Below the pieces are notes generated by a model, which made no database searches, had not been told where the DNA came from, and saw only the letters and a list, made by a program, of their open reading frames with translations. A stretch of 54,542 nt of DNA, counting the filler, from Jimgerdemannia flammicorona (Eukaryota), in assembly GCA_003990765.1 (NCBI GenBank). It is 3 parts of 3 records of this genome, joined end to end, with 100 filler letters (N's around TTAATTAATTAA, not from the genome) between each part and the next. Parts side by side here need not be neighbours in the genome. Positions count along the whole stretch, not along the records: positions 18,216 to 36,330 come from RBNJ01002300.1; positions 36,431 to 54,542 come from RBNJ01002301.1; 1 more part is not named here. One strand, written 5' to 3'. A program made the translations under genes and the position numbers. Below, one piece after another: positions 26,872-54,542 of the stretch (positions are counted from its first letter, which is position 1; each line of letters starts with the position of its first letter).

Positions 26872-27344
26872 TTCCTCCTAAATGGATGGTCTTGTCCCTG
26901 AGGTATCTATTCAAACTCCCAGGCTTCAATGGTCTGTATGGTCTTGTACTGTGCAATTTTCTATATGACTGTTTCCCAATGATATCTCTTTACTTTCTCA
27001 AAGTCAGTGGGAGTTACTCCTCTCAGGTAGTCTATCACTGCTTCATCTTCTCAGAATAACTTGTAGATCCTTTTGGCAATAGTGATCTGTGAGTAGGAGA
27101 GTTGACACTTGGCAATCCAGTATTCCTTGGTCTTTACTGGATCCTGATTGAGCACCTGTCCAAGCTTGAAGTACTCTTGGAATTCTGTGTGATACTGATA
27201 GGCTCTAAAGTGCGAGATCCGAGAGAGATGAGTCTGCACAATACTCTGAATATCCTTATAGTATGCCTCTATGGTTGGAGGCTCAGTGGTGTGCCATTGT
27301 CTTTTGATGGCTCTTTGGGCAGCACTAGTGATCTTGAGTGCCAT
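26872..27344 (-). pseudogene. Accessory ORF of unknown function between pol and the PPT of element 1
   Basis: MALKITS...FQEYFKLGQVL...ITIAKRIYKLF*EDEAVIDYLRGVTPTDFEKV. Similar to the LTR ORFs of elements 2 and 3. Confidence 0.65.
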
Positions 27345-27359
27345 CGCAGTACTTTTATT

Positions 27360-30300
27360 ACTGGCTATGATATTTCTTGAGTCAGTTTTGGTGAATGGTG
27401 GTGGGGATTATTGTGCCTGAGGGTTTTCATAGCCAAAAGGTGGTCTCTTTTATATCTTGCACAAGGTAAGGTCCTTCCCACTTGGGCTCCAGTTTTCATG
27501 ACCATGAAGCTTCTACTATATTCCAATACACTAGGACTTTGTCTCCTATCTTGATAATCTCCAAGGGCTTGTGGGTCTTTTCCGCATTCCTCCATTGTAG
27601 TGTCTGCGCCTTGGTTATGTAATCCTCAGCCTTCTTCCTGATTTGGTATAGTCTCCATATTTCCATGTCCTGTTGATAATCATTTGTATCCATTCTTCCA
27701 GATATTGGGGCATCTTTTGCTGTCCCAGGTATGTGATAATTCCATAGTAGAGCTCCTTATTCATGATTGATTTGTTGGTTGGAGGTAGTTTGAGGTGTCC
27801 GTGAGAGAGTATCTATATTGAAATTTGTTCTTCCAGGGCGGTGCATGATGGTTACATCATAGGCTTGTAACTTCATTATCTATCTGGCATAGATTCCCTT
27901 GGGTTGTCCAGTTGTCAGTAGCTAGGTGAGAGCTGAGTAGTCTGTCTGGATGGTGAAGTATCTTCCGGTCAGATAGTAGTGGAACTTTTCCACAGCCCAG
28001 ATGACTGCAAGGCATTCCAACTTGTAGGACTCATATTCTTTTTCAGCTCCTCGGGTTCCACGGCTAAGATATGCAATGACATACTCTTTTTTGTCTTCTT
28101 TTTGAGCCAGGACTGCTCCTAGTCCCTGTGCACTTGTATCTGTCTGAAGGATAAATTCTTGGGTCCAATTGGGTCGTCTGAGGATGGGTACCTGAGTTAG
28201 TCTGATCTTGAATTCATCAAATGCTTTTTGTTGTCTGCCAGTCCACTGGAACTTGGTATCCTTCTTGTTGAGTTTGTAGATTGGACCTGTGATGTTGGAG
28301 AATCCTCTAATGAACCTGCGATAGTAGGAGGCAAGTCCCATGAAGGCTTGGGCTTCTGTGACAGTAGTGGGCCTTGGGTATGCTACTACCACTTGTATTT
28401 TGAGGGGGTCCGTGTGTGTTCCATCTCGATTGATAATATGGCCAAGATAGAAGATCTCAATTTCTGCAAACTTGCACTTCTTGGGTTTGATATAAAGGCC
28501 ATGTTGTCTTAGTCTCTCTATTATCTACTGTATGTGCTGCAGATGTTCCTCAGGTGTCTTGCTGTAGATGATTACATCATCGACATAGACCATCATCCAT
28601 CTTCCCATGTCATAGCAGAAGATTTTGTTCATCATTTGCTGAAAGCTTGCTGGTGCATTGCACATTCTGAATGGCATTCGTAGGTAGATGTAGGTTCTGT
28701 CTGGGGTGATGAAGGCTGACTTTTCACTTGCCACTGCTGTGAGTCTGATTTGGTGGAATCCTGAGTATAAGTCCAAGGTGCTGTAGTACTGTGCTTCATC
28801 TCCCAGTGTTATAAGAATGTCACTGATGAGCGGCAGTGGTTGGCAATCCTTCTTGGTGACTGCATTGAGCTTTCTGTAGTCAACACAGAGCCTTGGGGCA
28901 AATTCTCCAGATTTGCTTTCTTTTTTTGGGGCTAGTACAACTAGTGAAGACCAGGGGCTGCTAGCTTCTTTGATGATACTGGCTTCTTCCATCTGCTTGA
29001 TTTCTTCTCTGAGCCATTCTTGGTAGGCTGGTGGGACAGATCTTGCCTTCTGGTAAATTGGTTCAGTGTCTCCGGTATCTACCTCATGATAGTAGTGTGG
29101 GGTCTTTCCCTTGATATCCTTGAAACCCGTGACAAGGACATCCTTGAATTTGTGGAGTATTTTCTTGAGTTCCTCCTTGAGTGGAAATTTGTCTCCAATG
29201 GTGTAACTGTGCTTGCTCGTGTTTTCCTCCTTCTTATACTCGAGTTCAGTGATCTTGGTGCTGGCGAATACTCCTCTTCCTGTGGATCTGAATCCTTTCT
29301 TTCCTCTTTTCATTTCCTCCAGATTCTTGACTTCTATGATCCTTGGCTGTATGATTGGAAAGATCAACATCTGTGCCAATCGGTCCTTCTTCTTGACTGG
29401 GAATGGAATTGTAGGATTGTGGTTCCTAGCAATGAGTAGAATTTCTCCAGTATAGTCTGAATCAATGACTCTTCCTTTGATTGTGATTTTGCTTCTAGCC
29501 AGGCTGCTTCTTATCTTGAGAATCCTGACATGATCCTTTGGGATGGTCATCTCTAGTCCAGTTGCGAGTAGGGTGGTTGTCTGGGGTTCGAGTACAGTTT
29601 CTTCTACTGTAGCGATGTCCATTCCAGCTATATTTTCTGACTTGTATTCTAGCAGGACTGCATCAGGGTAGATCTTTCGAATTTTGACCTTGATTTCTTC
29701 TTCATCATCACTGTCCTCCAGGAGGGCTGGTGGTTCATCATCTTCCTCCTTCTTGTCTTCTCTGGTCTGTTTTTTGAGAGCTTCCTGCCTTCTTGCCTGG
29801 TGGATCTTTCTGATTCTGATGGTGCACTGGTAGCAATCATTGATATGCTCCATACAGTACATCCTGATCCCATGAGGACAGACTCCTTGTGGTGTATAGC
29901 CTTCTGCCATCTTTTTGCACCATTCTTCTTCACTCATCCATCCAACTTTCTTCTTCTTTGGAATAGTCACCATATAAGCTCCCTCTTGCTCACTCTCTTC
30001 TTCCTCCATATCGGGCAGGACTCCTTTGTTAACATTAATGGGAATTCATATCTTCTGTCCCTGGTAGGTGATCTGCATCTTCTGAGCATTGAGATCGATT
30101 ATCGTCTTGGCTTTGTGAAGCCATTGATTGCCAATGATGATGTCATAGTTGGTGGCATTGGTTACAATTACATCTACTGAGATTGTTACTCCTCCAATCT
30201 TGATGGGAACATCTCAGATCTTCCCCAGAGGTGTGGCTCTTGTACCATCGGCTGTGACAAATACTAGCTTAGTTGCTTCTTCCACATCTCAACCTAGGCA

Positions 30301-31743
30301 GTCTGCTGCCTTCTTACTGAGGAGACATCCTCTTGCTCCTGTGTCAATGATGGCTTCAAAGACTCAATCCTCAATTTGGCATGTTGCATAAGCAGAGGTT
30401 TTGCGATTGTCCTCACTTTCTTCTTCTGAGTCCTCTTGAACATTATTGGTCTCAGTTATCTTCCATCCTTGTTCCTTGGTTGTTTCAGCAAGTCCAAACC
30501 TCATTTGCTATCTGAATGTTGGGATTTCTGCGAGCTGACCAAAGGTTGCATTGACCTTTTGTTGACTGAGATCCTTGAAGATATCATACTTGAAGGTCTT
30601 GGTCTTGCGAAGCTTCTTTTCTTTTTCTCCTTCACTGGCTGGAGTGGTTCCTCAGATGATATCTTGAACTGCTTGCTCTAGCTCAATATCTTGGTCCATC
30701 TCTTTGGCTTGGCTTTCTGTATTAGTTTCCATCCGCTTTTCCACTGGGTTCTTCTTGGGTCTTCCTGGCAGTCTCTTGTAGGGTTCTTTGCGAGCATCCT
30801 TCTTGGTGGTCTGAGCAGGATAGGCCTCCCATTTCTCTTCATCGGATTCTCCAATTTCTTCAAAGGTGATTGTATTGGCCTGCTCCTTATTTCATATGGC
30901 ATTGCTTGGTTGAGCCTTGCATTTGGTTTCACTCATACATTCATAGGAGTAGTGGCCTTCTTCTCTGCAGCTGTAGTAGGTACCTTTCTTCTTGTCTGAG
31001 GTGGCGGCAAACTTCTGAACAGGGCAGCAATCTCTTCCTCAGATTTCCTTTACCATATCTCCCAGGTGGGTGGTCATTTCAGCAAACCTTTTGGTGAGTT
31101 CCTCCATAGGGTCACTGTTCTTTTGCTGCTCTGTAGCTTTTGGCTGAGGTGTGTTTCGATTGATCATTGTGGTGGGGATCATACTGGTTGCCTTGGGTGC
31201 CTCGATTCTGACTCCTGTAACTCTCTCTATTATATCATCTTGTGGGTGTCTGGCTATCCAGTATCGCTGAGCATAGGTGACCTTTTGTGGCAGATCCAGA
31301 ATCACTAGTGATGAGCAGATGGCCATGGCTATTTCTGGATGGACTCCTTTCATGAAGGTTGCTTCAGCTACTTGATCTCAGATAGCAGCAGCATAATCTG
31401 CAAGAATTATCTGATATTGAATTCTGGTATAGAATGTGTTTGGATCCTCACTCATTCCTTGGCACATTGTATTGAGCTGATCCTTCAGGGCTTGCTTGAT
31501 CTCATCTGTGTAATATGTGTTTCGGAGCCAGGTCTTCTGTGCCATCAGTATGGCATCTGTATTATTTCCTGCATGGGTTGTGGCTGTGAATACTGCTCTG
31601 GCAGGGCCTCGTAGACTGAAGGGCATGAGGGCTACTTGCTGTGCTGCTGTCAGGGTCCTTACAGCAGTATACTGCTCGAAATCATCAATGAAGGTGATGA
31701 TTGATTTATCTGAGATATATCTATGAAATACTGGTAGTCTCAT
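27360..31743 (-). pseudogene. gag-pol of element 1 (disrupted)
   Basis: ORF pieces 31378-31743 (gag), decayed knuckle YYSCREEGHYSYEC, protease at ~30330-30365, 28525-30009 (dUTPase-RT), 27922-28392 (RNase H), integrase C-terminus at 27496-27660. Confidence 0.9.
29278..29694 (-). other. dUTPase domain within pol of element 1
   Basis: All five motifs: AGMD, RSSLA, VIDSDYTGEI, DRLAQ, RGKKGFRSTG. Confidence 0.9.
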
Positions 31744-31863
31744 ATCTATTTTGTCTGGGTATTGGGGCTTGGTTTGTATGATTGTTCGAGTGGTGGCAGT
31801 TGTTTGTTGTTCAGCTTAAAAGTGAGGGATTCATCTTGAATCACCAGCCAATGGGCACCAAGT

Positions 31864-32339
31864 TGTAACATAGCAGACGCTTACTCTTGAAAGTATGTCA
31901 GATTTCTGTATCTTGAAAACTTGACTATTCTGACTCTTGCAGAGTCTTTTGAAGTTGTATAGGAGGGTGGGTGAGTTCGAAGTGTATCTGCCCGCAGGCT
32001 TACTAGTTCCTTTGCTATCTCTTTGCTTTGAACTATTTCGATCTGAGGTTTATTCACTCGAAGATACTGGGTTATTTATATAAGTTTGCTAGCTATGAGA
32101 GGGTGGCTAAGTAATAAATGAGTCATTTGGACTTTGTCGAAACATTTGGACAATGTCTAAATGCTATACTAAATTGGGGTATTCGATTTGGATAATGTCT
32201 AAAATTTAGACAATGTCTAAGGATTTAGACAATGTCGAAATTGAGGACTGCTAACTATAAGGCTATACTACTTTGGGACTGAGTGCGATCAAGTGTCTAT
32301 TCCCTATTTCCTTCTTCCAAATTTGGCTGTACTGTCACA
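31864..32339 (-). repeat. 5' LTR of element 1
   Basis: Same length and sequence as 26394-26869 apart from mostly transition differences. Confidence 0.95.
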
Positions 32340-32670
32340 ATATTACTTATTTATAATATCATTACTAGGTTATATAATTATTCATCATATCTTCTTTATT
32401 GTCACATCTTATCTATTCACTCATTCTATTATAAATAATATAAAAGTATGTATATCTATATATCAGATCTAACAATATCAGAACTGAGTAAGAAATAGTT
32501 TTCTAAATAGTAAAAAAAGTCTGAGGTAAAAGAAAACCTCCCAAACTAATTAATAAAAAGCAAAAAGAATTCAAGATAGAGTGAATAAAGAACTAATATG
32601 TGAACTCTCTCTCAAAAGGACTAATATATAGACTAAGGTCTAAAAAGATCCCAATTCTACTATCTGAGGC

Positions 32671-34838: not shown

Positions 34839-34839
<1 letters not shown>

Positions 34840-36330: not shown

Positions 36331-36430
36331 NNNNNNNNNNNNNNNNNNNNNNNNNNNNNNNNNNNNNNNNNNNNTTAATTAATTAANNNNNNNNNNNNNN
36401 NNNNNNNNNNNNNNNNNNNNNNNNNNNNNN
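36331..36430. other. Artificial contig spacer
   Basis: 44 N + TTAATTAATTAA + 44 N. Confidence 0.98.
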
Positions 36431-36706
36431 TATCCTGTGCAAACGATTTTTGAGAAGAAAAAGGGCTATACGTATTGCTAGGATGATGTAATCGTGTGAG
36501 AGAGTGTTTGACCGTGCATGAGTGAGTGGTATTTACACGGACAAACTGGATAATCAAGGTCCGAACATATAAGGAAAGCGGAAAAGGGAGGCGGGCGAGA
36601 AAGAAAATACGTAACGAAGTTCCGTAATTTAAACAACAACAAGCAATCTCACCCCCAATTCACAGACCAGTCGACATTGTTCAAACACCTTTCACCTACA
36701 TGCTCC

Positions 36707-38885
36707 TCACTCTTCCTCGCCTTCCCAACCCTCCACCAGGACCTCGGGTTCTTTACGTTTCTCCTTAATCGAAAAACTCCACCACCACGTCCCCACAGCC
36801 ATAAAACTCAAGAACGCCCACATAAAATGTACTCTAACGATCCATGGGAATTTCTCTTCGTCCAACGCCCAGCTATACAGAGTCCCGCATAGAGCCGGAC
36901 CGATGGCCCTTATTCCGCTAGCCATGCACTGCCCGAACCCGTTAATGGTTCCGAGAGCGTTGAGGGAAGGCGCTGAATTGGCCACGAGCATTATGGAGCT
37001 GGTGTACACGACGACGCTGCACATGACCTTGGCCGCCAGGCATACCATGAGTCCTACCCAGACGTAGGGACCCTTGAGATGGCGCAGAAATCCCTGACCA
37101 AAGTAGAGTGGGATGTAGACGGAGAGACCGAAGCGAAAAACGGTGAGTGTTCCCCAACGACTATGCAAAAAAGGCCAGAGGAGCAGTTGCATGAAAAGAG
37201 TCATTACACCGCCGAGAGAGAGGGAGATGCCGATGTCTTTGGAGGTGAAACCGAGACCACCATCGGAGGGAGGAGTTGCGGCCCAGATGGAATAAAGGCC
37301 GTCGTACATGATGGTTTGGAAGCAGACGAGGACGTAGGCGGTAATTGTGATGACAACAGGGCGCGTCAGCACCGAGCAGAGGGTTGGTTTGCTGGGTGTG
37401 ATGGTGGTGGGGTCGAGGGTGAGGGTAGAGGAGGGGAGAGGGGAACGGAGGGAGGGCGGGGATGGCTGGATGGTTGGGGTGGAGGGGATGGATATGGATG
37501 GGGGCCGGCGAGCTGAATGGGCAGGAAAGGTGTGATATTCAGCAGGCACGCCGGCGCCGGAGGGCGTCGCGGTTCCGGACATCAGAGGCCGTCGTTCTGC
37601 GACCTTGTCATCTTCCTCACTTTCATCCTCACCGTCCGAATTCCTACTCTTCATACCCAACGTCTCCTCCAGAAAAAAGATACCAAACACCAGTCCGACA
37701 GTGCATAAACTTGCACCGACGAAACATGGCAAGAAGTATGGGTATGTCTCAAGCAAGCTCGTAATCCATCCTCTACCGCCAAACACGGCGGGGTACTTCT
37801 CGACGGGATGGTTGAGGAAGCCGCCAAGGAAGGGACCGACGATGTATCCTATGCCGGATAAGAGTGGCATAAGGGAGAAGGCATGGGCGCGCTGATTGGA
37901 CGAGTGATCAACTGTCAGCTCAGCGATCATGGACTTGAAAGACCCGAGGTTGCCGTTCAGCAGACCGCCGAGCAATCGCGAGGCGAGCGCCCAGGTATAC
38001 GTGGGCGATAAGCCAAAAAGGAGGATTGAGATGATCGTGCCGAGCAAGCCTATGAGTATGACGGGGCGACGACCTACAAATTGGTAGGTGGGGATTTAAA
38101 GGAGGGTTGAGTGATATTGTTTAAAGGTATGAGGAGTTGTTTCGTTGAACAGATCATTGAGAGTCGAGGGGGAGAAACCATACCAATTCGGTCTGATATA
38201 TATCCCCACGGAAGACCTAGACAGTTGATGAGTTAAGAGGATATTTTAGCAAGGAATAGGAATGGGGTCAGTTCCGGCTAAACCTAATTATAAGGTTTGT
38301 CTCGACTGACGAAAATCAATGCAACGATTACAAATCAAATCGTGATCTCTTCCGATCCCTCGCATATCGTTTCTATTCCTCCCATGGCATCATTTTGGTC
38401 GCATGATTTCATTAGATAAGTAACAGTTTTCCGGATGTTCCATGAAACTCACCTGAAAAGAATTGGGCGGCGGCGATACTGGACGCCATGTAACCGACGT
38501 AGTACCCTATCTTATTGAGGTCGTCGGTGATGTTGAAGTCTCTCACCATCTGCGTGAAAAATAATGACGGGAGGTGACGGTTATTAAATCCAATAAGATT
38601 AAGCGAAATAAAAAAATAAAAAAAAATAAAAAAGAAAGAAAAGAAAAAAACCTCCCAGCCAAATTAATACACAACAGGAGTTACTTACAAAATAGATAAA
38701 CGGTAATAGGAGGGTCATGCAGATGGGTTCCTGGAATGAGGTGGTTGGTGGTTTCGGTGAGGACGACGAAGAGCTCGCGAAACGAGGTCACGCAGGGTGG
38801 TTATACGTACAGGGAAATGACAAACACACAGAGTGAACAGCTGCCTTGTGGGGAAGGGCAGATCTCTTGTTCCAGCAGTCGTCAT
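36707..38885 (-). CDS. Major facilitator superfamily transporter (DHA1/TetA/ZIFL-like), 537 aa, 5 exons
   Basis: Exons 38885-38811, 38730-38689, 38549-38453, 38216-38184, 38073-36707 total 1614 nt in frame. MFS motif A WGYISDRIGRRPVI, RLLGGLLNGN, GPFLGGFL, YPYFLPC, multiple TM helices. Confidence 0.92.
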
Positions 38886-41130: not shown

Positions 41131-43559
41131 CGGCGGGTAATGAGTTAAAGGGGAAAGGTCAAAATCCACATTATTAGTCACAAGACGTATGGGATCATGT
41201 GTCAATGCATTTTCCACTATAAGTTTCACTTCCCAGCATGTTCCATGGCTCATTTTCGCCACAGCACGATAGGCCCGCTCTCTGTCCTCTGGGCCATGAT
41301 GGTTAACCGTCACTAGTTGTCATTTGGATAATTGTCATTCCAATCTCGGTAACCATTGTTAGATATCTAAATATGATTTAGCAGCAATCGGTTCCGAAAC
41401 AAAAGGCGGGTTTAAAGGGATCCTGTCCCATGCGATCAGTTTGAAACATTAAATTCAAATTATGCATTGAGTGATTCAAAAAGGAAATTAAAGAAGTATA
41501 AATAGCAACGGTATTGCAGGTCAGATCCTGTGTCGCCTTTTATACTCGGTTTAGTCGATCGATTACCATTCCCATCTCTCTGTCTACAACATTGAAACGA
41601 GCAACATCTAGTTTCGCACTGTTCCACCGCATTACTATTCCTTGAACTGTGGAACCATACGTTAATAAAGCAATCATCCAGTCGGCAAAACGTATGTTCA
41701 ACATTTATATTAATTGAATGTGAATTAACCCAAAACTGAACTGCCATACAATACTCCACAGAGAATCTAGTGATTGGATATTTCTTCTATAATTTAGATT
41801 TTTGTGGATGATCTACTGGATTTCATGCAAGGCAATTACGATGACTACTGTTCAAATGAAACGAAGCTTAAGCTGCGTTAACATATGCTAATTACTGATA
41901 ATTATCCCATTCTTGAATTGAAGTATGTCTTGTTTTTTATGTTCTGGTATAGCTTAGCACTTGTTTAAATCCGCCTGTGCCTGAGACCATCGACTTCTTC
42001 CTCTCACCTCAAACCAACTGGAGACGAATATTGGCTAGAAGAACGTCCAAGCACCTTAATCGTAATCTTGAATGTTACGCCATTGCTCCTAGCGGAGAGA
42101 TTTCCATCTCCAATGCTTTACACGTGACTTTGTCCTTGCCTCTGATAGTCTTTGCATACTACAAAACTATATCCGGTGCGAACCACACACTTGCATTGTA
42201 CACCACACACCACATTATAAGATATACGGAATAAGATGACACACACCTCTAAAGAAATGTGTATTTATGACCAGAAGATGCTCCCTGCCAGAACTATCAA
42301 CTTCTTTCTTATCTGAGTCACGATCTGTGGGTCAAAGATTTATAGATTTTGGCCGGCTCTCGAGATCCAGCATCGTTCACAGTCCTGCCAAAGAGCCAAT
42401 TTTTTTACAACAATTTATCCATCGTTCTAACGCCCATATCTGTATGTGATACGAATTCTCATCTATTATCCTTTTTTTTTTTTTTTAGTGACCGTCGTAT
42501 TGTTTGAGGCGCGCATGGGACTGTTGTTGGAGAGGATGTCGAGGATGCGAAAATTATTAGGAATGCTGATTTTGTATATAGAAGCAACATATAATTAACA
42601 GGCGACCATCTCAATTCCTCAACGCGTACGCAGGAGCGAAAGATGCCTGCCATAATTTCAGAATATGATTCTCCAAACTCACTGACCTGCCAAGATCTTG
42701 AGTGTCAAGAGGCCTCGAATTTCAAATCGTGCTATGCGGAGAAAACCCGGAGGTTGCAACAAGATATAATAGGAATAAAATAAGCCAGTCTACTCTCCAA
42801 TCATCTGGAATATCCACATGTGAGCCCGCCTTATGTATCAGCGCTTACATAATATTTCGATTTCCGGCATGCACCAGAAAGCTCTTTGCCTTTTATAAAC
42901 AGCGCATTGTTTCCTGCCCCTTACATTCTTTATCTAAAAGCCTTGTACATATTAATGCCTCTACTTACAATAGAGAAAGCATAGAAAAATTCGATTGTAA
43001 ATGCTGCATTTGTATCTTCACAAAATCATAATAGATACATATCTAGCTAATCTGAGTATATCTGGATATGAAATAGCTGTATTGTAGAATACTTAAAAGA
43101 TAGGTGGAGAGAAGCAGCATTTTTATTAATACTAACTTATGTGCTTTTACATATACTGATGATGTTTACAGAATGATGTAGTCTGGCTGTGCCCCACATA
43201 TTGAGTTGCTATAACTAAGATATTTCAACACTCCTGCTCAATGAGATATATGTCCCAGAATATACAAATAAAAGAACTAACTAATTATGACCAACTGGAT
43301 GCTATTTAGATGACTGAAAAAGCTCAAAATTCCCTGCTTATAAGTATGAAAATAGATAAACAAGGTAGTGATAAAATGAAATCCTAAGTAATGTTAATAA
43401 TGTAAATCCAGATCTATTTACAAATAAAATGATATAAGCAATATTAAAGAGATATAATTGCAAGATATAGTGAAAGGCCTTTTAGTGTTCTGAAAAACTT
43501 TCAATTATTACTGTATTATTATTATTACTTACTGCTTGCTGAGGTATAGTTCCCATTAG

Positions 43560-44321
43560 TATAGAGTTGTCCATAAGTCTCATTTCTTATATATATAAGT
43601 CAAACTTTGCCTTTGAAAGAACTTTAGTCAATAAATCTGTCATCATATACTTCATTAGAGTGTATTCTAGATATATAGTGCTGTTTTCCACATATTCTTA
43701 TATGAAATAATATTATATATCAATATTTTTTATTCTTGCATAATATATAGAGTTCTTTACTATAGTAATTATCGATTAATTATCTTATTGGAGTAGTATA
43801 GAGTGCCATTGATTATATTCTATGTAACTCTTTTAGCAGTTTTCAAAGTTATATAGCTTCCTTTATTACTATTGACAATGCTTGATACTCTACTTGTATA
43901 AAGGATATTACCACTGAGGATTTCTTGTATATTTGCTACAAAATAGCTCCATTTTTGCTAATTTTGAAGAGATATCTGGTCATAGACTATCTGTCATTCA
44001 GGTTACTGATCTAATTAGTATTACATATATCAGATAATCTTATAGCACTCCTACTTAATCTGTTATTACTTGAATATAGTATATAGTATACTATATCTTT
44101 GATATATCTTAATTATCATCTAATGTGAATTATTATATCAGAATGAGTACTATATCACTTTGTTGACTATATATGATATATCAGACCTTATCTTGAGTAT
44201 AAGATATATAAGAGATCCCACAACTTACTGATAGGAGATATTATTATTTTTAAATATAGTATTACTAAACTTCTTAGTCTTACAGATATCTCTATAGGGA
44301 CTCTGATAGGTTTGTATTTAC
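43560..44321 (-). mobile_element. Ty1/Copia relic, RT C-terminus and RNase H
   Basis: VGSLIYL..RSDI; DN*SII..KN..ARIKNIDI*YYFI*E..MMTDLLTK (deaminated DNQSA..RTKHIDI..ADLLTK). Confidence 0.8.
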
Positions 44322-45776
44322 TGTTACGTAGTGGTCGCTGAGTCCTTCAAATATGTCAGATTCTCTTCAAGGTATATCTCTTAGACTAACTCAAGTTGTT
44401 ATAAGCAAGTTCTTATTGGAGTGCCTTCTCAAGATCTTATAGTCCTCTAACTTCTTATCTTTAACTATCTTGTTATCTCTTAGATTGCTTGCAAGGAAGT
44501 GTGTGTATTGCACTGAGAGGAACTGACTTTATTTCAGAGGAAATAAGAGAGGTATTTATACAAAATATAATTCAATGGTTGCTAAGATATAAAGCTAAAT
44601 ATAAATTCCAATAACTAAAACTACTAAGTTCTAGAGCTGGCATTATTTAGTGTCACATCAAAATACTGGTGCTGGAATAATTTTGCATTACCTCAGAATG
44701 CCGGTGCTAGTATTATCCAATATAACAAAGAACTTAGAGCAGAAAGTTCAAGATTATAGGGGCTTCATCATCATCATCACTGAAGGAGATGAGATCCATG
44801 AATTTATCCTTTTCACATACTTCGATGTTATGTGGGATGACGTCATCGATGACATCATCATGTTTGGCTGTGGTGGGGAAATCGGGGACAAGGTCTGGAG
44901 CTCTCCAGTCTATGAGGTTCTCTTCCACAAAATAAGGAACAAATGTGGGGTCTTGGGGAGATCTAACCCAGATGCTTGGGCCTTAGAATACTGAGATCAA
45001 TTCTTGCAGGAATTGATCTGGGTTGTCCTGAAGAATAGGGTGCCAGAAGTCTTCTACTTCTTTGCTATTGAGGGTGATAGTGGACTGGGCTTCTGTAGCC
45101 ATCCTGGCTTCTAGTGCATTGATACGGTAGGATGATAGGTCTCTGAAATCTGAGACTCTAACATACTCCAAGTTGGGGATCGACCATGGTGCATGTCTGA
45201 AGATCTGATAGATCTTCTTAGCTGTCCTTATTTTGCATATATCCATGGGAGTGGCATCTTGTAGCTATTGGGTGCTGGCCTGTGGGAACTCCCAGCAGAG
45301 GAGGTTTCCTATTTCATACTCCTGCCATATTTGGAGGCATTTGGTAGCAATGGTGATCCTTGTTTCCATTTCACGGCAGTAGAGGATAAAGTGATAAGGG
45401 TCTGCAGTACTCAGGTTAACACTAGGAGTCCTTCTTGAGTGGGTCCTTATAGCTCTTCTGATGTCTTGAAACATCCTTTCCTCGACTGAGATACCTTGGT
45501 GATTCCTTGACCTTGAGGTTTGGCAGGCGGCAGGTATTTTGTTTGTGGTATATCTTTGAGCTATTTTGGGATTGGTGGTTCTTGTTGGTTGCTGCTACTG
45601 CAATTCCTTGATTCTTCTTTTATATTCTTCAGGATGCTTGTGCTGTGGTCACAATGACTCACAGTTGGTCATCATTGCTTATCTCATATGCCATATGATC
45701 TTGTGCTCCGATCTGATGGCTTATAAGGAAAGGCTATCTCCTGTGCTGATGTCATCATTCTGGAGTCACTGTTACA
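44322..45776 (-). repeat. 3' LTR of element 2 (1455 bp)
   Basis: TGTTAC...GTTACA; matches 51480-52933. Confidence 0.95.
44734..45537 (-). pseudogene. LTR-encoded accessory ORF, 3' LTR copy
   Basis: ORF-track pieces 45265-45474, 44983-45246 and 44734-44928 share one frame. Start mutated to ATA; two internal stops. Confidence 0.8.
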
Positions 45777-46129
45777 TCTTCCTCCTGAATAAGAATCTTC
45801 CTGAGTATCCTTATTCATTGGTCCAGTCCTGAAAAATTTGCTGATCCCATAACCTCTAGCAAGGGGTCAAAAACTGGTATTTATGGGCTAGCATCTTCTC
45901 TTTGTATTTTGGCATGATGGTGAAGGGTCGCTCCCTTCATATAGAGCAAGGGCCTGATTCTGATCTTGACCAATCAGTTGATAGTTCGAACTCCTCTGAC
46001 TGTGAAAGTCTCATGGATGAGTAGTTGCCAGTGCTATATCCCTTAGAGAATGGTCCAGACAGATAGCCTGCTAGTCACGGGATATGCTATTATGATTCAC
46101 AGACTAGAATCTCATGGGCGGTCATCACA

Positions 46130-49100
46130 TTTTGCTTCTTTTGTATAGGTTCATAGTACTTCTTGAGTCTATTCCTATGTACCATGGTAGGCAGTATGGT
46201 CCCTGAGATTTTTCTAAGCCAGAAGGTAGTTTTCTTGATATCTTGCACATAGAAGGGTCCTTCCCATTTGGGCTCCAGTTTTTATGACCATGAGGCTTCT
46301 ATCATATTTCAATACAGTAGAACCTTTTCTCCAATTCAGATAGGTTCTAGGGCCTTGTGATTCTTTTCCACATTCTTCCTTGTCAGTGCTTGTGACTTGG
46401 TGATGTAATCTTCAGCCTTCTTCCTAATTTGGTGTAGTCTCCGGATTTCTGCATCAACCCATCTCCAAGTTAGGTCTAGATTTATGACTGAGGTTCTATT
46501 AGAATCTTCTTCTCTGAAGAGCAGCTCTCTTGGGGTAAAATGTGTACTCTGTGACCATATATCTCATAGAACAGAGAGGGCAGTTGGGAGATAGTTATCC
46601 CAATTATCATATATCTCTGAGATCTTTGCTAGGATGTTCTTGAGGGTCTTATTGGTTCTCTCTGTCTGTCCATTTTCTTGAGGGTGGTATGTAGTGGTCT
46701 CGATGTACTGGATCTTGTATTTCTGATACATTATCTTGTGGAATCTATTGACAAATTCTGTGCCATGGTCTGTTGTGATTTGCTTTGGTGTCTTGTAGTG
46801 GCAGATGATTTCTCAGTGTAGGAAATCGGCTATAGAGAGAGCATTGGCTTCTTGTAATGCTCCTGTCTCTATCTATTTAGTGAAGAGGTCTACAATAACT
46901 ATAATATAGTGGTTTCCTGATAGTGTTACTGGTAGTGGTCCAATGATATCAATTGTGATGTGGTGGAAGGGGATAGGTTCAATTCTTGATGATCTGGGTG
47001 CCTGGTCTTGCTGATCTTGTTTCTGTTTTTGGCACTTGTCACACTCTTTGACAAATTGGCACAGGTCTTCTTCCATCTTGGACCACCACATGGTTCTTCT
47101 TGCCTTGTCATATGTGTTGGTTCCTCCTAAGTGTCCTTGCTCATGTACTTCCTTCATTACTTGATACTTCTTGTATTCAGGTATTACTAGCTTTCCTTCT
47201 TTCCTGAGTATAGTGTTGTCTAATTCAAAATGTTTCCAAGTCTGGTTGATGATGGTGATTGTCCAGGGTTTGAGATGGTTGGGCATCTTCTGCTGCTCAA
47301 GATAGCTAATTAATCCATAGTATAGCTCCTTATTCATGTTGAATAGTATTGATAGAGATGTTTCAGGGTATCCTTGAGAGTGCATCGGTATTGGGGTTGG
47401 TCTTTCCTGGGCAGTGCTTGACAGTACAGTCATATTCTTGCAGTCTGTAGATCCATCTGACATATATTCCTTTGGGGTTCAGAGTGTGAAATAGCCAGAC
47501 AAGAGCAGAATGGTCTGTTTGAATAGTGAAGTGTTTTCCAACTAGGTAGTAGTGGAACTTGTCTACTGCCCAAACTACTGTTAAGCATTCAAGCTTGCAT
47601 GACTCATAGTTCTGTTCTGCTCCACAGGTACCTCAGCTTACATAGGAGATGACATATTCATGTCTATCTTTCTTCTGAGCTAGGACCACTCCAAGTCCTA
47701 TAGCACTCACGTCTGTCTGCAGGATGAATTCTAGGGTCCAGTCTGATCTTCTGAGGATGGGTGCTTGGGTCAACCTGGTCTTGAGTTCATTGAAGGTTTC
47801 TTGGCACTCCTTGGTCTATTTGAATTTGGTCTCCTTCTTCAGTAGCTCATAGATAGGTGCTGTAATGTTAGAGTATCCTTTGATGAATCTTCTGTAGTAG
47901 CTGGCCAGTCCAAGAAAGGCATGAACTTCTGTAGTTGTTCTGGGTCTTGGGTAGGCTGCAACAGCCTCGATCTTCATGGGGTCTGTGTGGATTCTGGTCT
48001 GGTTGATGAGGTGTCCTAGGTAGGCGATTTCTTGAGCTGCAAACTTGCATTTCTTGGGCTTGATGTAGAGGCCATGCTCCTTGAGCCTCTTGAGGGCTAG
48101 CTGTATGTGATTGACATATTCCTGTGCAGTGTTGCTGAAGATGATCACATCATCAACATAGACAAAAAGCCATTTTCCAATCTCATTGCCGAAGACTCTG
48201 TTCATCATTCACTGGAAACTTGCTGGGGTATTGCACATTCCAAATGGCATTCACAGATAGATATAGGTGGCATCAGGTGTGATGAAGGCTGATTTCTCAC
48301 TGGCATCTTGAGTGAGACCGATCTGATGGAAGTCTGAGAACAGATCCAAGGTAGTGTAGTATTTGGCTTCACTTCCAAGGGTGGTAAGGATTTCTTGAAT
48401 ATTCAGTAAGGGCTGCCTATCCTTCTTGGTGATGGCATTGAGTTTCCTGTAGTCAATACAGAGTCTTGGTGCAAACTCTCCAGGCTTGCTTCCTTTCTTC
48501 AGGACAAGGATAATGGGTGAGGCCCAGGGGCTGATAGCTTGCTTGATGATTCCAGCTTCTTCTATTTCCTTGAGTTCGGCTTGCAGCCATTCTCTGTAGG
48601 CAGGTGGTATGGGTCTGGCTTTCTGATAGATAGGCTTGGTATCACCAGTGTCAACTTCATGGTGGTACTTGGGTTCTTGATTATGGATATCCCTAAAGTC
48701 TGTAGCAAGTACTTCTTTATTCTGGTACAGAATCTTGAGAAGTTGTTCCTCTAGGGGAAAGTTTTCTCCAATGGTATATGTGTGCTTGTTCTGATCCTTG
48801 TCTTTCTTGTGCTCAAGTTCAGTAATCTTGGTGGTGGCATAGGCTCCTCTTCCAGTAGATCCAAAGCTTTGTTCTCCTCTCTTGGTCTTGATAAGTTCAG
48901 TGGCCTCTATGATCTTGGGCTTCTTGATTTCGTGGATCAGCATCTGGCCAATCCTGTCATGCTTCTTGACTTCGAAGGGAGTGGTGTGGTTGTGATTTCT
49001 GACTATAAGAAAAATCTCACCAGTGTAATCAGGGTCAATTACTCCTCCTTTAACTGAGATTTCACTTTTGGCCAGACTGCTCCTGGTCTTGATAATTCTG

Positions 49101-51359
49101 ACATGGTTTTCTGGTAGCTTGACTCCTATTCCAGTGCCAAGTAGGGTGGTGGTCTGTGTTTTGAGGGTAGCATCTTGGATGCTGGCAAGGTCCATTCCTA
49201 TGGCTCCTTCAGTCTTGTATTCTGGGATCTTGGCTTTAGGGTAAAACTTCTTGACCTTGAGGGTAATGTCTGATTCTTGTTCCTCCTCATCATCACTGTC
49301 AGCTTGAAGCTCTGGGGGCTGGTCATCTTCTTCAGCTTTCCTTTTTGCTTCAGCAGCTTCTTGCTCATATTTCTGTTGGCAGATTTTCCTGACTTCACTG
49401 ATATAGGCCCAGCAGTCATTCAGGTGTTCAGAGCAGTACATTCTAGTACCATGGGGGCATCTTCCTTGAGGGGCATACCCATCGATGATCTTGTTATACC
49501 ACTGCTCATCTGTGAGCTTGGGTGTCTTGTTCTTGTTCTTGTTCTTATTCACTGAGTGCATGAAGACCTCTGTGTCTTCTTCATCTCCTTCCTCCATGTC
49601 TGGCAGGACTCCTTTGTGGACATTGATAGAAACTCATACCTTTCTTCCTCTGTAGTTGATCTGCATCTTCTGAGCATTGAGGTCAATGATGGCCTTGGCC
49701 TTGTGAAGCTATTGGTTGCCAATGAGGATGTCATAGTTGGTGGCACTTGTAATAATCACATCTACTGGGATGATAGCTCCTCCTATCTTGATGGGGACTT
49801 CTTGGATTTTGCTAAGGGGGGTAGCTTGTGTACCATCTGCTGTGATATAGACCATTTGGTGGACTCTTCAATGTCCCAACCTAGGCAGTCAATTGCCTTC
49901 TTACTCATAAGGCATCCTCCAGCACCAGTATCAATGATGGCATCAAAGATACAGTCTTCGATCTGGCAGGGGGTATAGGCTGATGTCTTGCGCTGGTCTT
50001 CAGATTCTTCACCTGAGTTCTCAGATTCTTCTTGTACATTGTGAGCTTCTACAATCTTGTACTCTTGATTCTTGACAGTAGTTGCAAGTTCTACTCTTAA
50101 CTGCTGTCTGAAGGCAGGGACTTCAGCTAGCTGCCTAAAAGTGACATTGATCTTCTATTCCTTGAAGTCCTTGTAGATGTCATACTGGTGGATCTTGGTC
50201 TTACGCAGCTTCTATTCCTTCTTGCTCTCGCTTTCTCCTGAGACTGGAGTAGTGCCTTCGATAATTTGGTTGGCAGCTTCATCTAACTCCATGTCTTGAT
50301 CAATCTCCTCGTATTGGGTCTTGCTTTGAATAGTGATAGCTGGAGTCTTTTTTGGTCTTCCAACTGGCTTGCTGTTGCTCTTCTTGTCATAGGGCTTGGA
50401 CCAGGTTCTGGTTCCTTCGGTAGTAGGGTAGAATTCGAGCCCCTCATAGTATTCTTCATCATCAGTGTCACTGATCTCCTCAATGACTACTGTATTAGTT
50501 TGTTCTCTAGTTCTGCTAGCATTACTTGGTTGGGCTTTGCGTCTTGTTTTGGTCATGCAACTCTTTGCATAGTGGCCTTCTTCTCTACATCTGAAGCATA
50601 TGATATTGCATTCTTCTGTAGCAACTGCAAATCTCTGCACTGGTCTCCTGTTGGTGCTTCAGACTTCTCTACAATATCACCAAGGTGTGCAGTCATCTTG
50701 GCAAACTGCTTGGCAAGTTCTTCCACTGGGTCAGCTTTGGCTGTCTTGGGGGTAGGTGGGGTTGGTTGTCTGTTTACAACTGTGGCAGGTAAGATACTAG
50801 TTGGCTTTGATGGCTCTATCTTTATGCCAGTTATTTTCTCCATTGAGTGTTCAGCAGAGTGTCTGGCAGTCCAATATCTCTGTGCAAAGACCACTTTCTG
50901 ATCAAGGGTCAGTGCAGCTGGGGTAGACCAGATTGCTAGGGCAATTTCAGAGTGAACTCCTTTGAGGAATGTTGAATCTGCTATTTGTTCCTTGAAGGCA
51001 TCATCATAGCCAGCCAAGACAATCTGGTGGCAGATTTGGGTATAGAATAAGTTGGGATCTTCACTAAGTCCATGGCAGATAGTATTGATTTGATCCTTAA
51101 GAGCTTGCTTGATCTCTTCAGTATAATATGTTGTTCTGAGGAAGGTCTTCATGTTGGCAAGTTTGACTGCATCTGCACCAGCAATGGTGGCTGCATTAAA
51201 CTTGTTTCTGGCAGGTCCTCTGAGGCTGACTGGTAGAAGAGCCAATTGAGCATCCACTCCAAGAGCTCATATGGTGGCAAATTGTTCAAAGTCTTCAATG
51301 AAGGTCAGGATTGACTCTTCAGTAGTATATCTATAGAATGTGGGGGAGTGTATTTCCAT
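46130..51359 (-). pseudogene. gag-pol of element 2 (disrupted)
   Basis: gag 50553-51359, CCHC at ~50557-50600, protease at ~49910-49950, 48251-49597 dUTPase-RT, 47816-48208 RT, 46873-47463 integrase N-terminus. Confidence 0.92.
48851..49261 (-). other. dUTPase domain within pol of element 2
   Basis: IGMDL, RSSLA, GGVIDPDYTGEI, DRIGQ, RGEQSFGSTG. Confidence 0.92.
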
Positions 51360-51890
51360 CTTGTCTTGAATTCTTACAGGGGTGACTCTTGTAGTCAGGG
51401 TAGTTGTTGTGGGGGTTGTTTGTTTTTCAGCTTGAAAGTGAGGGATTCATCTTGAATCACCAGCCAATGGGCACCAAGTTGTCACATAGTGGTCACTGAG
51501 TCCTTCAAATATGCCAGATTCTCTTCAAGGTGTATCTCTTAGACTAACTCAAGTTGTTATAAGCAAGTTCTTATTGGAGTACCTTCCCAAGGTCTTATAG
51601 TCCTCAAACTTCTTATCTTTAACTATCTTGTTATCTCTTAGATTGCTTACAAGGAAGTGTGTATATTGCACTGAGAGGAACTGACTTTATTTCAGAGGAA
51701 ATAAGAGAGGTATTTATACAAAATATAATTCAATGGTTGCTTAGATATAAAGCTAAATATAAATTCCATAACTAAAACTACTAAGTTCCAGAGCTGGCAT
51801 TATTTAGTGTCACATCAAAATACCAGTGCTGGAATAATTTCACATCACCTCAGAATGCCGGTGCTGGCATTATCCAGTGTAACAAAGAAC

Positions 51891-52691
51891 TTAGAGCAGA
51901 AAGTTCAGGATTATGGGGGCTTCATCATCATCATCACTGAAGGAGATGAGATCCACAAATTCATCATTTTCACATGCTTTGATGTTATGCAGGATGATAT
52001 CATCGATGACGTCATCATGTTTGACTGTGGTGGGGAAATCAGGGACAAGGTCTGGAGCTCTCCAGTCTATGAGGTTCTCTTCCACAAAATAAGGAACAAA
52101 AGTGGGGTCTTGGGGAGATCTAACCTGGATGCTTGGGCCATGGAATACTGAGATCAATCCTTACAGGAATTGATCTGGGTTGTCCTGAAGGATAGGGTGC
52201 CAGAAGTCTTCTACTTCTTCACTGTTGAGAGTGATAGTGGACTGGACTTCTGTAGCCACCCTGGCTTCTAGTGCATTGATACAGCGGGATGATAGGTCTC
52301 TGAAATCTGAGACTCTAACATACTCCAAGTTGGAAATTGACCATGGTGCATGCCTGAAGATCTGATGGATCTTAGCTGTCCTTGTTTCATATATATCCAT
52401 GGAAGTGACATCTTGTAGCTCTTGGGTGCTGGCCTGTGGGAACTCCCAGCAGAGGTGGTTTCCTATTTCATACTTCTGCTATATTTGGAGGCATTCGGTA
52501 GTAATGGTGATCCTTGTTTCCATTTCACAGCAGTAGGGAATAAAGTGATAAGGGTCTGCAGTACCCAGGTAAACACTAGGAGTCCTTCTTGAGCGGGTCC
52601 TCATGGCTCTTCTGATGTCTTGGAACATCCTTTCCTCGACTGAGATACCTTGGTGATTTCTTGACCTTGAGGTTTGGTGGGTGGCAGGCAT
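51891..52691 (-). pseudogene. LTR-encoded accessory ORF (~266 aa), 5' LTR copy
   Basis: Pieces 52479-52691, 52161-52400 and 51891-52157 share one frame. Its two stops fall at different sites from those of the other LTR. Confidence 0.8.
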
Positions 52692-52771
52692 TTTGTTTGT
52701 GGTAAGTCTTTGAGCTATTTTGGGATTAGTGGTTCTTGTTGGTTGCTGCTACTGCGGTTTCTTGATCCTTC

Positions 52772-52778
52772 TTTTATA
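52772..52778 (-). promoter_or_regulatory. TATA-like box upstream of the LTR ORF
   Basis: TATAAAA about 80 bp before the ATG at 52691, conserved in the other LTR. Distinct from TATAAAT (~51712-51718) and AATAAA (~51686-51691) further downstream. Confidence 0.5.
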
Positions 52779-52933
52779 TTCTTCAAAATGCTTGTGCTGT
52801 GGTCACAATGACTCACAGTTGATCATCATTACTCATCTCATATGCCATATGATCTTCTTGTGCTCCGATCTGGTGGCTTGTAAGGAAAGGCTGTCTCCTG
52901 TGCTGATGTCATTATTCTGGGGTCACTGTTACA

Positions 52934-53576
52934 TTACTTATGCTAAATCATTCAAGTATAGTCTGAATATATGTAGCTTATGATAAATATATAGTATATT
53001 TGTTCATATTACATATAATTGATATTTCAAGAAGATAGAATACATCACTCATAGTTATCATCTTGAATTTCTAGTATAGTATTATCTTTACATTATTGAT
53101 CTTTCACCATTCTAATCAGAATAATATTATTAATCTAAATTCTTAGGTATACTATTTTTGAGAATATATATCAAATATATATATATATATCAGCTTTACA
53201 ATACTTAAATTTATGTCTAAGAGGTATTTGTTGATTTTTTGATTCCACAGTTTTACTGCTAATTTGATACTTTAGAGACCTTTATATAATTTGTATATAA
53301 GCTCCTTTTGCTTATCATTGTATAGTTTGTATCCTTATGGTTGCTAAATATATATATAGCTCTATTATTCAAGAAGACTGTCTTAATATCTATTTAGTAA
53401 ATTTCATAGTCAAATTAAGCTCTGATTACAAGAAGTATTCTAGATAAAGTAAACTTGAATACTGGAGAAAAGGTCTTATTATAGTCTATGCTATATCTTT
53501 GTAAATATTTCTTTACCACAAATCAAGCCTTATATTCCTCTATACTCCCATTACTATTATGTTTAATTTTATATAT
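52934..53576 (-). mobile_element. Ty1/Copia relic, RT N-terminal part, continuing 43560-44321
   Basis: YKA*FVVK..IDYNKTFSPV, QIDIKTVFL..YI*QP*GY, YLS*ATYIQTILE*F. Confidence 0.8.
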
Positions 53577-54542
53577 TGTGACATCTACAATTGACCCTGT
53601 CCAAATTCGGAGTACCCTGTGACCACAAGATCAGATGACATAATGGCGTGACAATCAAATAGACAGCCTGACCCATTAGGTGATCATCCCAAAAGGAGAC
53701 AAGAAGATCCGAGCCAAAATGAAGACCACGTTATTTAAGGAACCCTGCTTCGCCTCAGAGATCGGCACCAAAGAACCAAGTACCCACCACACAATACCTC
53801 CCATTCACCAAACCAACCAGACCTCCCGCTGCTCTACCCCTTTGCCTGGCCCAAAGACCCTGATCTTTGAAGCTATCAAGAAGGCCATCTGGTGCCCAGA
53901 TACTTCCGAACACTTGAACTTCTATACTGAGGACCTTGGACACTTCATCAACTACCGGTATATAATGACCCAATAGCTCAAAGACACTACCGAATGAATG
54001 ACCCTCTGGCATGACTATGAAATTAGATACCGCCTTTGCAATGAGACTCAAGAAGGAGACCAGGAAGACCTCATTGCCGAAATGTTAACCACCAGTTGGC
54101 TAATCAAGAGAGCCCTCCGTGTCCATCAAATCTTCTGCCATATTCCCTGGACTATAGCACACTTGCAAGGAGTAATAGCTGGCAGCCTCTCCCGCCTTTC
54201 AACTGAAGATGCTGACTGGATAGAATCTGAAGTAGCCAATGCTATTGGCAGCAACTGCATCACCATAGGAAGCCAACAAACTGAACCTACTCAGCCAGGT
54301 TTTCACACCACCCCACTCTGAGACAACCATCAAGGTCACCTAATGAGTCTCATGGAGATATTTGAAGGACCGCCCATCACTATAGAAATACCTGTTGGAG
54401 CTACTCCAACCACCTACCACCCTGTCAGCCACAATTCACACCTCATCATTTGGGAACCGAATCAAGAGGAAGCCCAAGAAGTTCCTGTCTTTAAAGAGGA
54501 AACCCAAGAACTCCAAGACCCTGCCCCTGAAGAAACCCCCTC
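53577..54542 (+). mobile_element. Probable LTR of a third related Gypsy element carrying the accessory ORF, cut by the window end
   Basis: Begins TGTGACA, interrupting the Copia RT. One frame from ~53794 (ATA, IPPIHQT vs MPATHQT) reads through three stops and is similar along its length to the element 2 LTR ORF. No partner LTR is visible. Confidence 0.7.

Follow-up and report, generated by a model that had tools for sequence, protein, structure and literature searches.

A conserved protein family encoded at the 3' end of dUTPase-bearing Ty3/Gypsy retrotransposons of Jimgerdemannia flammicorona

Two Ty3/Gypsy retrotransposons of Jimgerdemannia flammicorona, here called E1 and E2, carry related open reading frames (ORFs) at their 3' ends. 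They were found together with a third ORF of the same kind, E3, in a stretch of 54,542 nucleotides from assembly GCA_003990765.1 (three parts joined end to end, filler included; hereafter the window). The three ORFs encode one protein family, with similarity far beyond chance, and they represent a real gene under purifying selection. Very probably this is an accessory gene encoded by the elements themselves and belonging to one lineage of dUTPase-bearing Ty3/Gypsy retrotransposons. The E1 ORF follows integrase and lies just before the polypurine tract (PPT), while the E2 ORF lies just after this tract and is contained entirely within each long terminal repeat (LTR), so that E2 has one copy per LTR.

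One protein family

The relationship is seen most directly between the E2 and E3 proteins, which match by BLASTP at 3e-19 with 29% identity across 199 aa. This similarity is found by tblastx in a single frame pair only, and no DNA-level match between the two ORFs is detectable. Alignments show the common motifs F..I..A, HFI.Y, DN and L...F.GP that an earlier reading of the DNA by itself (the sequence-only reading) had listed for E2 and E3, and all seven peptides quoted there occur where they had been placed (E1, minus strand, 26991-27182; E2, minus strand, 45133-45327; E3, plus strand, 54007-54201). BLASTP values for the E1 protein are 0.002 against E2 (~24% identity) and 0.31 against E3. Comparison of the E1-type profile with the E2/E3-type profile by hhalign gives a probability of 89.9% and an E value of 1.7e-6 over 104 columns. 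The profile-profile check that had been proposed for the family thus yields significant similarity, and the claim of a single family is upheld.

Intact relatives of all three types are present in the databases. Six proteins of the E2 type were recovered at E<=0.01 among 193 candidates, including forms of 247 and 271 aa; nine of the E1 type at E<=0.1 among 10 candidates, including the full 153-aa ORF; and three of the E3 type at E<=0.1 among 131 candidates, including one of 325 aa. A profile search against 1.84 billion representatives returned 16 proteins at E<=0.001. Six of these, small remote relatives (P0026, P0027, P0029, P0030, P0032 and P0033), carry the core motifs, and the intact homologues span 153 to 342 aa. 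One apparent member, P0031, was rejected as a spurious profile match to a bacterial Ig-domain protein. Another protein, P0028 (152 aa), aligns to the long forms in their middle piece only (..GYLEGLIDLFRGP..) and has an acidic tail after it. Either the C-terminal module also exists without the helical core described below, or this record may be a fragment.

Twenty of 30 database proteins, and no window sequence, make up alignment A5. The excluded proteins are fragments or near-duplicates (P0007, P0009, P0013, P0017, P0018, P0020, P0022 and P0025), together with P0028 and P0031. Hidden Markov models (HMMs) from subsets of A5 were compared with the six-frame translation of the window; the rows of each subset were left in the column frame of the full alignment, possibly a slight advantage to the models. 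A model of the six remote relatives only matches exactly the four ORF copies in the window (6.8e-16, 4.8e-13, 1.8e-9 and 5.4e-7), and its next match scores 0.078. A model built without any E1-type sequence matches the E1 ORF at 1.4e-16. A weak HMM match at 21327-21506 (E 0.05-0.08) is no fifth copy, being the integrase C-terminus of another Gypsy relic. This fourth, different Gypsy-like sequence retains the C-terminal part of integrase on the plus strand (21180-21750; ..GDQVLLSTKNLKI..KFQPKYIGPFEI..). The family HMMs detect no accessory-family ORF after its integrase (~21.3 kb), which fits the suggestion that the gene is specific to one lineage.

Beyond the window, an E2-type ORF of 322 codons stands intact on metagenome contig L001, the single locus obtained from 380 pattern matches (alignment A4). 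No relatives were found in viral contigs, either among 48 pattern matches (alignment A1) or among 332 (A4).

Purifying selection and later decay

The E2 ORF and its L001 homologue differ with a Nei-Gojobori dN/dS of 0.21-0.22, a ratio that is approximate because dS (~1.6-1.7) is saturated. Their differences fall at the three codon positions as 105/71/143, an excess at third positions. The same method applied to the two E2 LTR copies against each other gives a dN/dS of 0.49 and an even spread over codon positions (26/16/24). The sequence-only reading had suggested a gene under selection, and the ratio of ~0.21 between E2 and L001, together with the intact homologues of each type, bears this out. 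The ORF evolves much faster than pol: between E1 and E2, identity is ~24% in the ORF and 58% in the protease-dUTPase-reverse transcriptase (PR-dUTPase-RT) region. A swap of the 3' module between the two elements is not sustained by these figures, which also fit unequal rates.

All four window copies have decayed, with two or three internal stops each and the start ATG lost in three of the four. The E2 defects (four internal stops, the lost ATG and a deleted codon) are each private to one LTR copy, and the ORF was therefore open when the element inserted. The start codon has changed from ATG to ATA in every copy that lost it (27366-27368, 45535-45537 and 53794-53796). Among 66 differences between the E2 LTR copies of the ORF, 59 are transitions, a C-to-T type of decay such as deamination or a process resembling repeat-induced point mutation would leave.

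Two sequencing runs, X1 and X2 (small; their RNA label is a guess), were aligned to 36431-54542. Short contigs from them (records 6, 7, 11 and 15) align on the E2 LTR ORF with 19-35 other letters per 269-404 nt. They show only that related LTR sequence occurs in those runs, and bear no conclusion on expression. Relative to the window, X1 contigs have 18 extra letters at the 44620/51774 joint of the 35-nt repeat region (Table 1) and pass over 88 nt of the acidic tail region (51962-52051). Repeat number and tail length thus vary among copies.

The carrier elements

Across the window, 105 stop-to-stop ORFs of at least 90 aa were scanned with Pfam, which identified two minus-strand Ty3/Gypsy elements. 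The E1 pol matches dUTPase (1.6e-22), RVT_1 (7.1e-20) and RT_RNaseH_2 (1.4e-32). Matches in E2 are to zf-CCHC (6.4e-5), aspartyl protease (weakly), dUTPase (5.2e-26), RVT_1 and Integrase_H2C2 (6.4e-17). A gag zinc knuckle and the pol order PR-dUTPase-RT-RNaseH-integrase, all on the minus strand, are those of Ty3/Gypsy elements, and dUTPase is carried by both pols. No chromodomain was found by Pfam in either element.

Paired LTRs with TG..CA ends bound both elements. Those of E1 (476 bp) are 93.5% alike and flanked by the target duplication ATAT; those of E2 (~1455 bp) are 92.5% alike and flanked by GTAA. A primer-binding site (PBS), TGGTGCCCATTGG..., starts 3 nt past the 5' LTR in E1 and E2 alike, and a PPT adjoins each 3' LTR (AGGAGGAAGT in E1, AGGAGGAAGA in E2). 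The window contains no tRNA genes. The PBS/leader sequence ACTTGGTGCCCATTGGCTGGTGATTCAAGATGAATCCCTCACTTT (31818-31863 and 51434-51479) is identical in the two elements, though their LTRs are unrelated except at the ends.

Nucleotide identity between E1 and E2 is 68-78% along a collinear stretch that begins 40 nt before the 5' LTR ends and runs through the end of integrase. The E1 integrase lacks ~780 nt that are present in E2 (E1 ~27660-27930 against E2 46450-47230). Judging from this gap, either E1 would be non-autonomous or the deletion came after insertion.

Of the three Gypsy elements described in the sequence-only reading, E1 and E2 are canonical, with LTRs, PBS, PPT and pol; E3 shows only an LTR-like terminus before the window ends. 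This terminus, TGTGACATC at 53577, sits 217 nt upstream of the ORF start, and its E2 counterpart sits 239 nt upstream. The DNA preceding it (52934-53576) is AT-rich and non-coding and has no PPT. The arrangement resembles that of E2 but is no proof of an LTR location, for the window stops inside the ORF.

Position of the gene relative to the PPT and U3

In E1, the start of the ORF overlaps the final pol codons, at the end of integrase, and its stop lies 27 nt ahead of the PPT. Nucleotide homology between E1 and E2 ends 3 nt ahead of this ORF. The short E1 LTRs and the ORF just inside the PPT agree with the earlier description. The E2 ORF, also as described, occupies ~nt 240-1043 of the 1455-nt LTR, upstream of a TATAAAT at ~1217 and an AATAAA at ~1244 nt from the LTR 5' end. 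These two signals belong to a module (TGTATAAATACC, 14-16 nt, TGAATAAACCTCAG) that is conserved in the E1 LTR, the E2 LTR and L001, lies downstream of the ORF in all three and is placed ~220-240 nt from the LTR 3' end in E1 and E2. Its TATA box suggests an LTR promoter with a poly(A) signal at the transcription start.

Since the E2 ORF is upstream of this module, it would lie in U3, the position of the 3' accessory genes of some retroviruses. A gene in U3 would enter the genomic RNA only by way of the 3' LTR, and the E2 ORF would thus be the last gene of the RNA, as in E1. The gene would therefore always be last on the RNA genome, downstream of pol. The E1 type would stand just before the PPT; the E2 type, and probably the E3 type, would stand just after it in U3 and be copied into both LTRs.

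The same order means that the LTR's own promoter cannot transcribe the 5' copy of E2. A TATAAAA ahead of the E2 ORF (Table 1) is conserved between E2 and L001 despite saturated dS, and in L001 it stands 65 nt ahead of the ATG. In E3, a TATTTAA lies 62 nt ahead of the ORF start. The TATAAAA suggests that each LTR, including a solo LTR, may be a complete gene in itself, with its end at the LTR poly(A) signal. A TATA-like box ahead of the E1 ORF was discarded as promoter evidence, as it sits in integrase codons common to E2 (VQDIKETT in E1, VQDIKKTT in E2).

The sequence-only reading had the position of the gene shifting across the PPT. The ORF is indeed on opposite sides in E1 and E2; that it shifted from one side to the other is weakly supported. 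The terminus of the E2 LTR is similar to the 35-nt repeat unit found past the ORF: their local score of 18 was equalled or exceeded in 24 of 2000 shuffles, and among 26 other segments of the LTR the highest score is 16. This gives a weak hint that terminal U3 sequence may have been duplicated upstream of the ORF in E2.

Repeats also occur in U3 of both elements (Table 1). They differ between the lineages, as do the proteins.

The predicted protein

None of the 16 database members and 20 A5 members has a Pfam-A, NCBIfam or PHROGs family at or above cut-off, in agreement with the earlier description of the family as unannotated. A sequence-profile search of the PDB gave no relative, the best match being a designed protein at E 0.14. 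A structure prediction had been called for, and AlphaFold2 run on A5 models the 153-aa form with seven helices at a pLDDT (predicted local distance difference test) of 88.6 and a pTM (predicted template modelling score) of 0.80. The shared domain of 150 residues is thus confidently predicted to be an all-helical fold, one without a known relative. The ESM Atlas has no cluster at >=0.9 for P0005 or P0027, and its helix-hairpin-helix rows (0.76-0.78) are below the level of shuffled proteins.

The core may form pairs. A test with copies of one chain gave a predicted pairing score of 0.45, against 0.01 for the best of three controls. The mark of this test was reached by 21 of 30 solved pairs of one chain and none of 23 single chains in a microbial benchmark, and by 17 of 29 solved pairs and none of 30 single chains in a eukaryotic one. 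Runs agree in at least 81% of contacts, the partner has a pLDDT of at least 64, and the predicted interface is the conserved helix 40-76.

Long forms carry tails with a net charge of -22 to -33 (P0004, P0005, P0006, P0008, P0019 and P0024), in which F, L, I and W stand among the acidic residues. No transmembrane segment is present in any of the 13 members checked, where the maximum Kyte-Doolittle mean over 19 residues is <=1.07.

Possible functions of the gene

The protein is possibly, if on balance doubtfully, a trans-acting regulator of the element's own expression. The new all-helical domain would pair through its long conserved helix to give a dimer in vivo. The conserved middle piece of the long forms and their strongly acidic tail, studded with hydrophobic residues, would be additions to this domain. 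The dimer would recognise the lineage-specific palindromic repeats in U3, and the acidic tail would recruit host machinery to activate transcription. Homology, selection, position and confidence in the fold are direct results of the comparisons above; an own promoter, the dimer in vivo, DNA binding and activation are inferred. As a complete explanation, gene identity and regulatory mechanism taken together are put forward tentatively.

Stated in its strongest form, this proposal makes the LTR itself a gene: a TATA box of its own would drive a selected ORF of 270-340 codons, and the LTR poly(A) signal would close it. It would encode a dimeric DNA-binding transactivator or repressor with a new helical fold that acts on lineage-specific palindromic repeats a few dozen bases further downstream in the same U3. 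This version is distinctly unlikely. If true, solo LTRs would stay working copies, protein and site would co-evolve in a self-contained regulatory circuit, and the strategy of complex retroviruses would have been invented independently outside animal retroviruses.

Several observations weigh against a DNA-binding regulator. DNA binding has no significant structural or sequence match behind it: Foldseek finds nothing at E<=0.001 in the PDB or BFVD (best BFVD E 0.83), and VIA-align finds no chain with Z>=5 among 48,161 (best Z 4.2). The weak VIA-align echoes that speak for it, VirB (3vwb, Z 3.6) and SopB (3mky and 3mkw, Z 3.5 and 3.2) at residues ~61-153, are matched in score by the unrelated helical proteins listed around these ParB-like entries. 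The core is approximately neutral (net -6 to +3), not basic like many DNA binders, and the dimer test may be passed through general helical packing. The short E1 type has no long acidic tail and ends ...EAWEFE, and the long form P0005 was modelled so poorly (pLDDT 42) that its model was not used. TATA-like words are common in AT-rich DNA, and LTRs usually have repeats in U3, which might be sites for host factors. For the ORF, neither a start, an end nor a splice of a transcript was seen; the X1/X2 contigs give no start, end, strand or level. Finally, the E3 ORF cannot be placed in an LTR, since the window ends inside it.

The neutral, helical core is like that of many protein-binding modules, and it is conceivable, though unlikely, that the protein is instead an adaptor for counter-defence. 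A helical dimer would then bind a host protein, and the protein, with linear motifs in its tail, would divert or disable a host factor (of silencing or restriction, for instance) in the manner of Nef. The C-termini do repeat acidic and aromatic or aliphatic words (..DDVWHQL, ..EDFVDI, ..SFEDI.., ..DLISF..), which may correspond to motifs like the Atg8-binding [W/F]xx[L/I] after acidic residues, or to sorting motifs. However, these are candidate motifs only, for an acidic tail readily gives rise to words so short, and they equally fit activation domains. An arms race would also fit an ORF that evolves much faster than pol (~24% against 58% identity), but the dN/dS of 0.21 denotes constraint and not positive selection, at least between E2 and L001.

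Dimers and palindromic U3 repeats suit a repressor as well as the activator proposed above. In an account based on copy-number control, protein made from every LTR and solo LTR would repress transcription or particle assembly of its own family, a kind of self-limitation for which the Ty1 p22 restriction factor is reportedly an analogue. An LTR-borne gene with a possible promoter of its own would rise in dose with copy number. However, the acidic hydrophobic tails look more like regions for activation or interaction, and the E1 type has a single gene copy per element, outside the LTR. Such control is improbable.

A structural or replication cofactor, whether a partner of Gag or integrase or a particle chaperone for packaging, nuclear entry or targeting, has a similarly small probability. 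The E1 gene comes directly after integrase and overlaps its stop, and a separate targeting factor is conceivable in elements that lack a Pfam chromodomain. The E2 type has an arginine-rich N-terminus (RRAMRTRSRR) that might serve such a role, but this stretch is not conserved in the other two types, E1 and E3. Placement in an LTR with a possible promoter of its own would be odd for a stoichiometric component of particles.

Little probability is also left for a passenger, that is, a captured host gene or gene piece that is useless to the element or is kept because selection sees its host copies. The remote relatives P0026-P0033 could be host genes, and LTR retrotransposons do capture foreign ORFs, for example in the bdelloid elements described in the sections of PMC5408684 drawn on here. 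Yet this gene has been kept in three lineages diverged to synonymous saturation, without a change of its place along the RNA genome; it was intact when E2 inserted; and in L001 the same promoter module of the LTR stands beside it.

Conserved non-coding LTR or 3' untranslated sequence that mimics a protein could account for stops in four of four copies and for three copies without an ATG, but it is hardly credible and is refuted by the tblastx, BLASTP, dN/dS, codon-position and HMM results, since the similarity is confined to a single frame pair with 29% aa identity between E2 and E3 and no DNA similarity, third positions vary in excess, homologues of 153-342 aa are intact and the predicted fold is confident. 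The chance of an env-like gene is practically negligible: the env position named in the sequence-only reading holds as a place downstream of pol in E1 only, while the proteins (125-342 aa, all-helical and acidic, with no hydrophobic segment in 13 of 13 members and no viral fold match in BFVD) are without any Env feature, which refutes this reading as far as sequence features can show.

Relation to known systems

Several retroviruses have 3' accessory genes that overlap U3 or lie in it, namely sag of mouse mammary tumour virus, nef of human and simian immunodeficiency viruses (HIV/SIV) and tas/bet of foamy viruses. These genes come last on the RNA, are duplicated in the provirus and are dispensable for core enzymology. 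The tas gene of foamy viruses has an internal promoter of its own, and its product is an activator that binds DNA and contains an acidic activation region; this is the model proposed here. What the present family has in common with sag, nef and tas is its place as the last gene after pol, extending into or lying within U3 of the 3' LTR; like them, it would be dispensable for core enzymology. It differs in that its carriers are Ty3/Gypsy elements without env and in that the family is known from sequence alone. No similarity to viral or retroviral accessory proteins was found in BFVD, the PDB or Pfam, although a distant relationship is still possible. By analogy, the closest counterparts may be the 3'-terminal transactivator genes of complex retroviruses.

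The ParB-family cores VirB (3vwb) and SopB (3mky/3mkw) are dimers that bind repeated palindromic sites. They superpose on the model over 78-89 residues with Z values within the noise for helical proteins and with no sequence or Pfam signal, and they serve as a lead only.

Plant LTR retrotransposons also have extra ORFs. In grasses, ORF0 of Retrosat2, RIRE3 and RIRE8 lies upstream of gag-pol in the internal region, according to the sections of PMC3485330 drawn on here. By the description given there, ORF0 is likewise an orphan ORF in Gypsy elements with unusually long LTRs, evolving faster than gag-pol with Ka below Ks; unlike the present family, it belongs to plant elements and is not in U3.

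The bdelloid elements Juno, Vesta and TelKA have the same pol layout as E1 and E2, with dUTPase between PR and RT, and carry diverse ORF3s between pol and the 3' LTR (PMC5408684, in part). Those ORF3s are typically separate transcription units and include env-like, GDSL, DEDDy, coiled-coil and transmembrane types. Like the present ORFs, they are family-specific, follow pol and are auxiliary or unexplained. None is placed inside an LTR in the parts of that account used here, and the present family has none of those domains in Pfam.

Among fungal Gypsy elements, the legend to figure 3 of a survey lists an 'add. ORF' of unknown function (PMC2864245, in part). The same sections report dUTPase in Gypsy elements of basidiomycetes and Tuber, namely PosPlaTy3-5 of Postia placenta and elements of Phanerochaete and Tuber. 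As there described, dUTPase is located between PR and RT, an order found also in E1 and E2, and the likeness is one of description only. Other partial accounts report that dUTPase is enriched among transposable element domains of Entomophthora (10.1101/2023.09.13.557621) and that crapaud LTRs have variable 5' halves, with no LTR ORF mentioned in the sections of PMC10787394 drawn on here. The literature consulted contains no report of a selected protein gene inside U3 of a retrotransposon LTR; the supplement of PMC2864245 may list fungal 'add. ORF' elements.

Extra ORFs in LTR retrotransposons are known, few of them with a function; the feature without a counterpart in the literature consulted is a selected gene inside LTR U3. 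If this gene is expressed from the LTR, solo LTRs would be gene copies whose dose follows the history of the element, not inert scars, and annotation pipelines that mask LTRs would leave a protein family unseen. With one arrangement before the PPT and its sister after it, the elements would also offer a natural experiment on moving LTR borders. A confidently predicted fold without a known relative is also a clean target for work on structure and function.

Features of the window

Table 1. Positions in the window of the parts of E1, E2 and E3
Feature	Position	Strand	Remarks
E1 5' LTR	31864..32339	-	476 bp, TG..CA; TATATAA 32076-32082, AATAAA 32049-32054; then PBS/leader
E1 U3 repeats	32125..32240	.	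Five near-palindromic 18-nt copies of ATTTRGACAATGTCTAAA upstream of the LTR TATA; candidate binding sites
E1 internal region	27369..31863	-	gag, PR, dUTPase, RT, RNaseH, integrase lacking ~780 nt relative to E2
E1 accessory ORF	26907..27368	-	153 codons + stop; start ATG decayed to ATA; two internal stops
E1 PPT AGGAGGAAGT	26870..26879	-	Adjoins 3' LTR, 27 nt past ORF stop
E1 3' LTR	26394..26869	-	476 bp; contains no ORF of the accessory family
E2 5' LTR	51480..52933	-	1454 bp
TATAAAA before E2 ORF	52772..52778 (5' LTR), 45618-45624 (3' LTR)	-	81 nt upstream of start; GAATATAAAAG conserved in L001; candidate own promoter
E2 accessory ORF, 5' LTR copy	51891..52691	-	266 codons; ATG intact; two private internal stops; one codon deleted
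E2 U3 repeats	51783..51887	.	35-nt tandem repeat with CCAGNNCTGG cores, three to four units; past ORF stop and ahead of LTR TATA
E2 5' LTR promoter/poly(A) module (putative)	51686..51718	-	TATAAAT 51712-51718, AATAAA 51686-51691; conserved in E1 LTR and L001
E2 internal region	45787..51479	-	PBS, gag (CCHC), PR, dUTPase, RT, RNaseH, integrase, then ~330 nt non-coding
E2 PPT AGGAGGAAGA	45777..45786	-	Directly 5' of the 3' LTR, hence upstream of the ORF
E2 3' LTR	44322..45776	-	1455 bp
E2 accessory ORF, 3' LTR copy	44734..45537	-	267 codons + stop; ATG decayed to ATA; two private internal stops
E2 3' LTR promoter/poly(A) module (putative)	TATAAAT 44554-44560, AATAAA 44528-44533	-	Equivalents of the 5' LTR module
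E3 terminus and leader	53577..53793	+	LTR-like terminus TGTGACATC...; TATTTAA 53732; extends to ORF start
E3 accessory ORF	53794..54542	+	ATG decayed to ATA; three internal stops; runs past window end

Two identical masked patterns, each of 44 N, 12 bases and 44 N, occupy 18116-18215 and 36331-36430. A gene with a 7tm_3 domain (class C G-protein-coupled receptor; 7.4e-23) lies at 14350-15244 on the plus strand, split across at least two frames. A host gene for a major facilitator superfamily (MFS) transporter is located at 36710-38850 on the minus strand (Pfam 8e-20). Two segments within it (38549-38689 and 38729-38810) are skipped by contigs of X1 and of X2 alike; the skips measure 80-139 nt, have CT..AC ends and look like introns.

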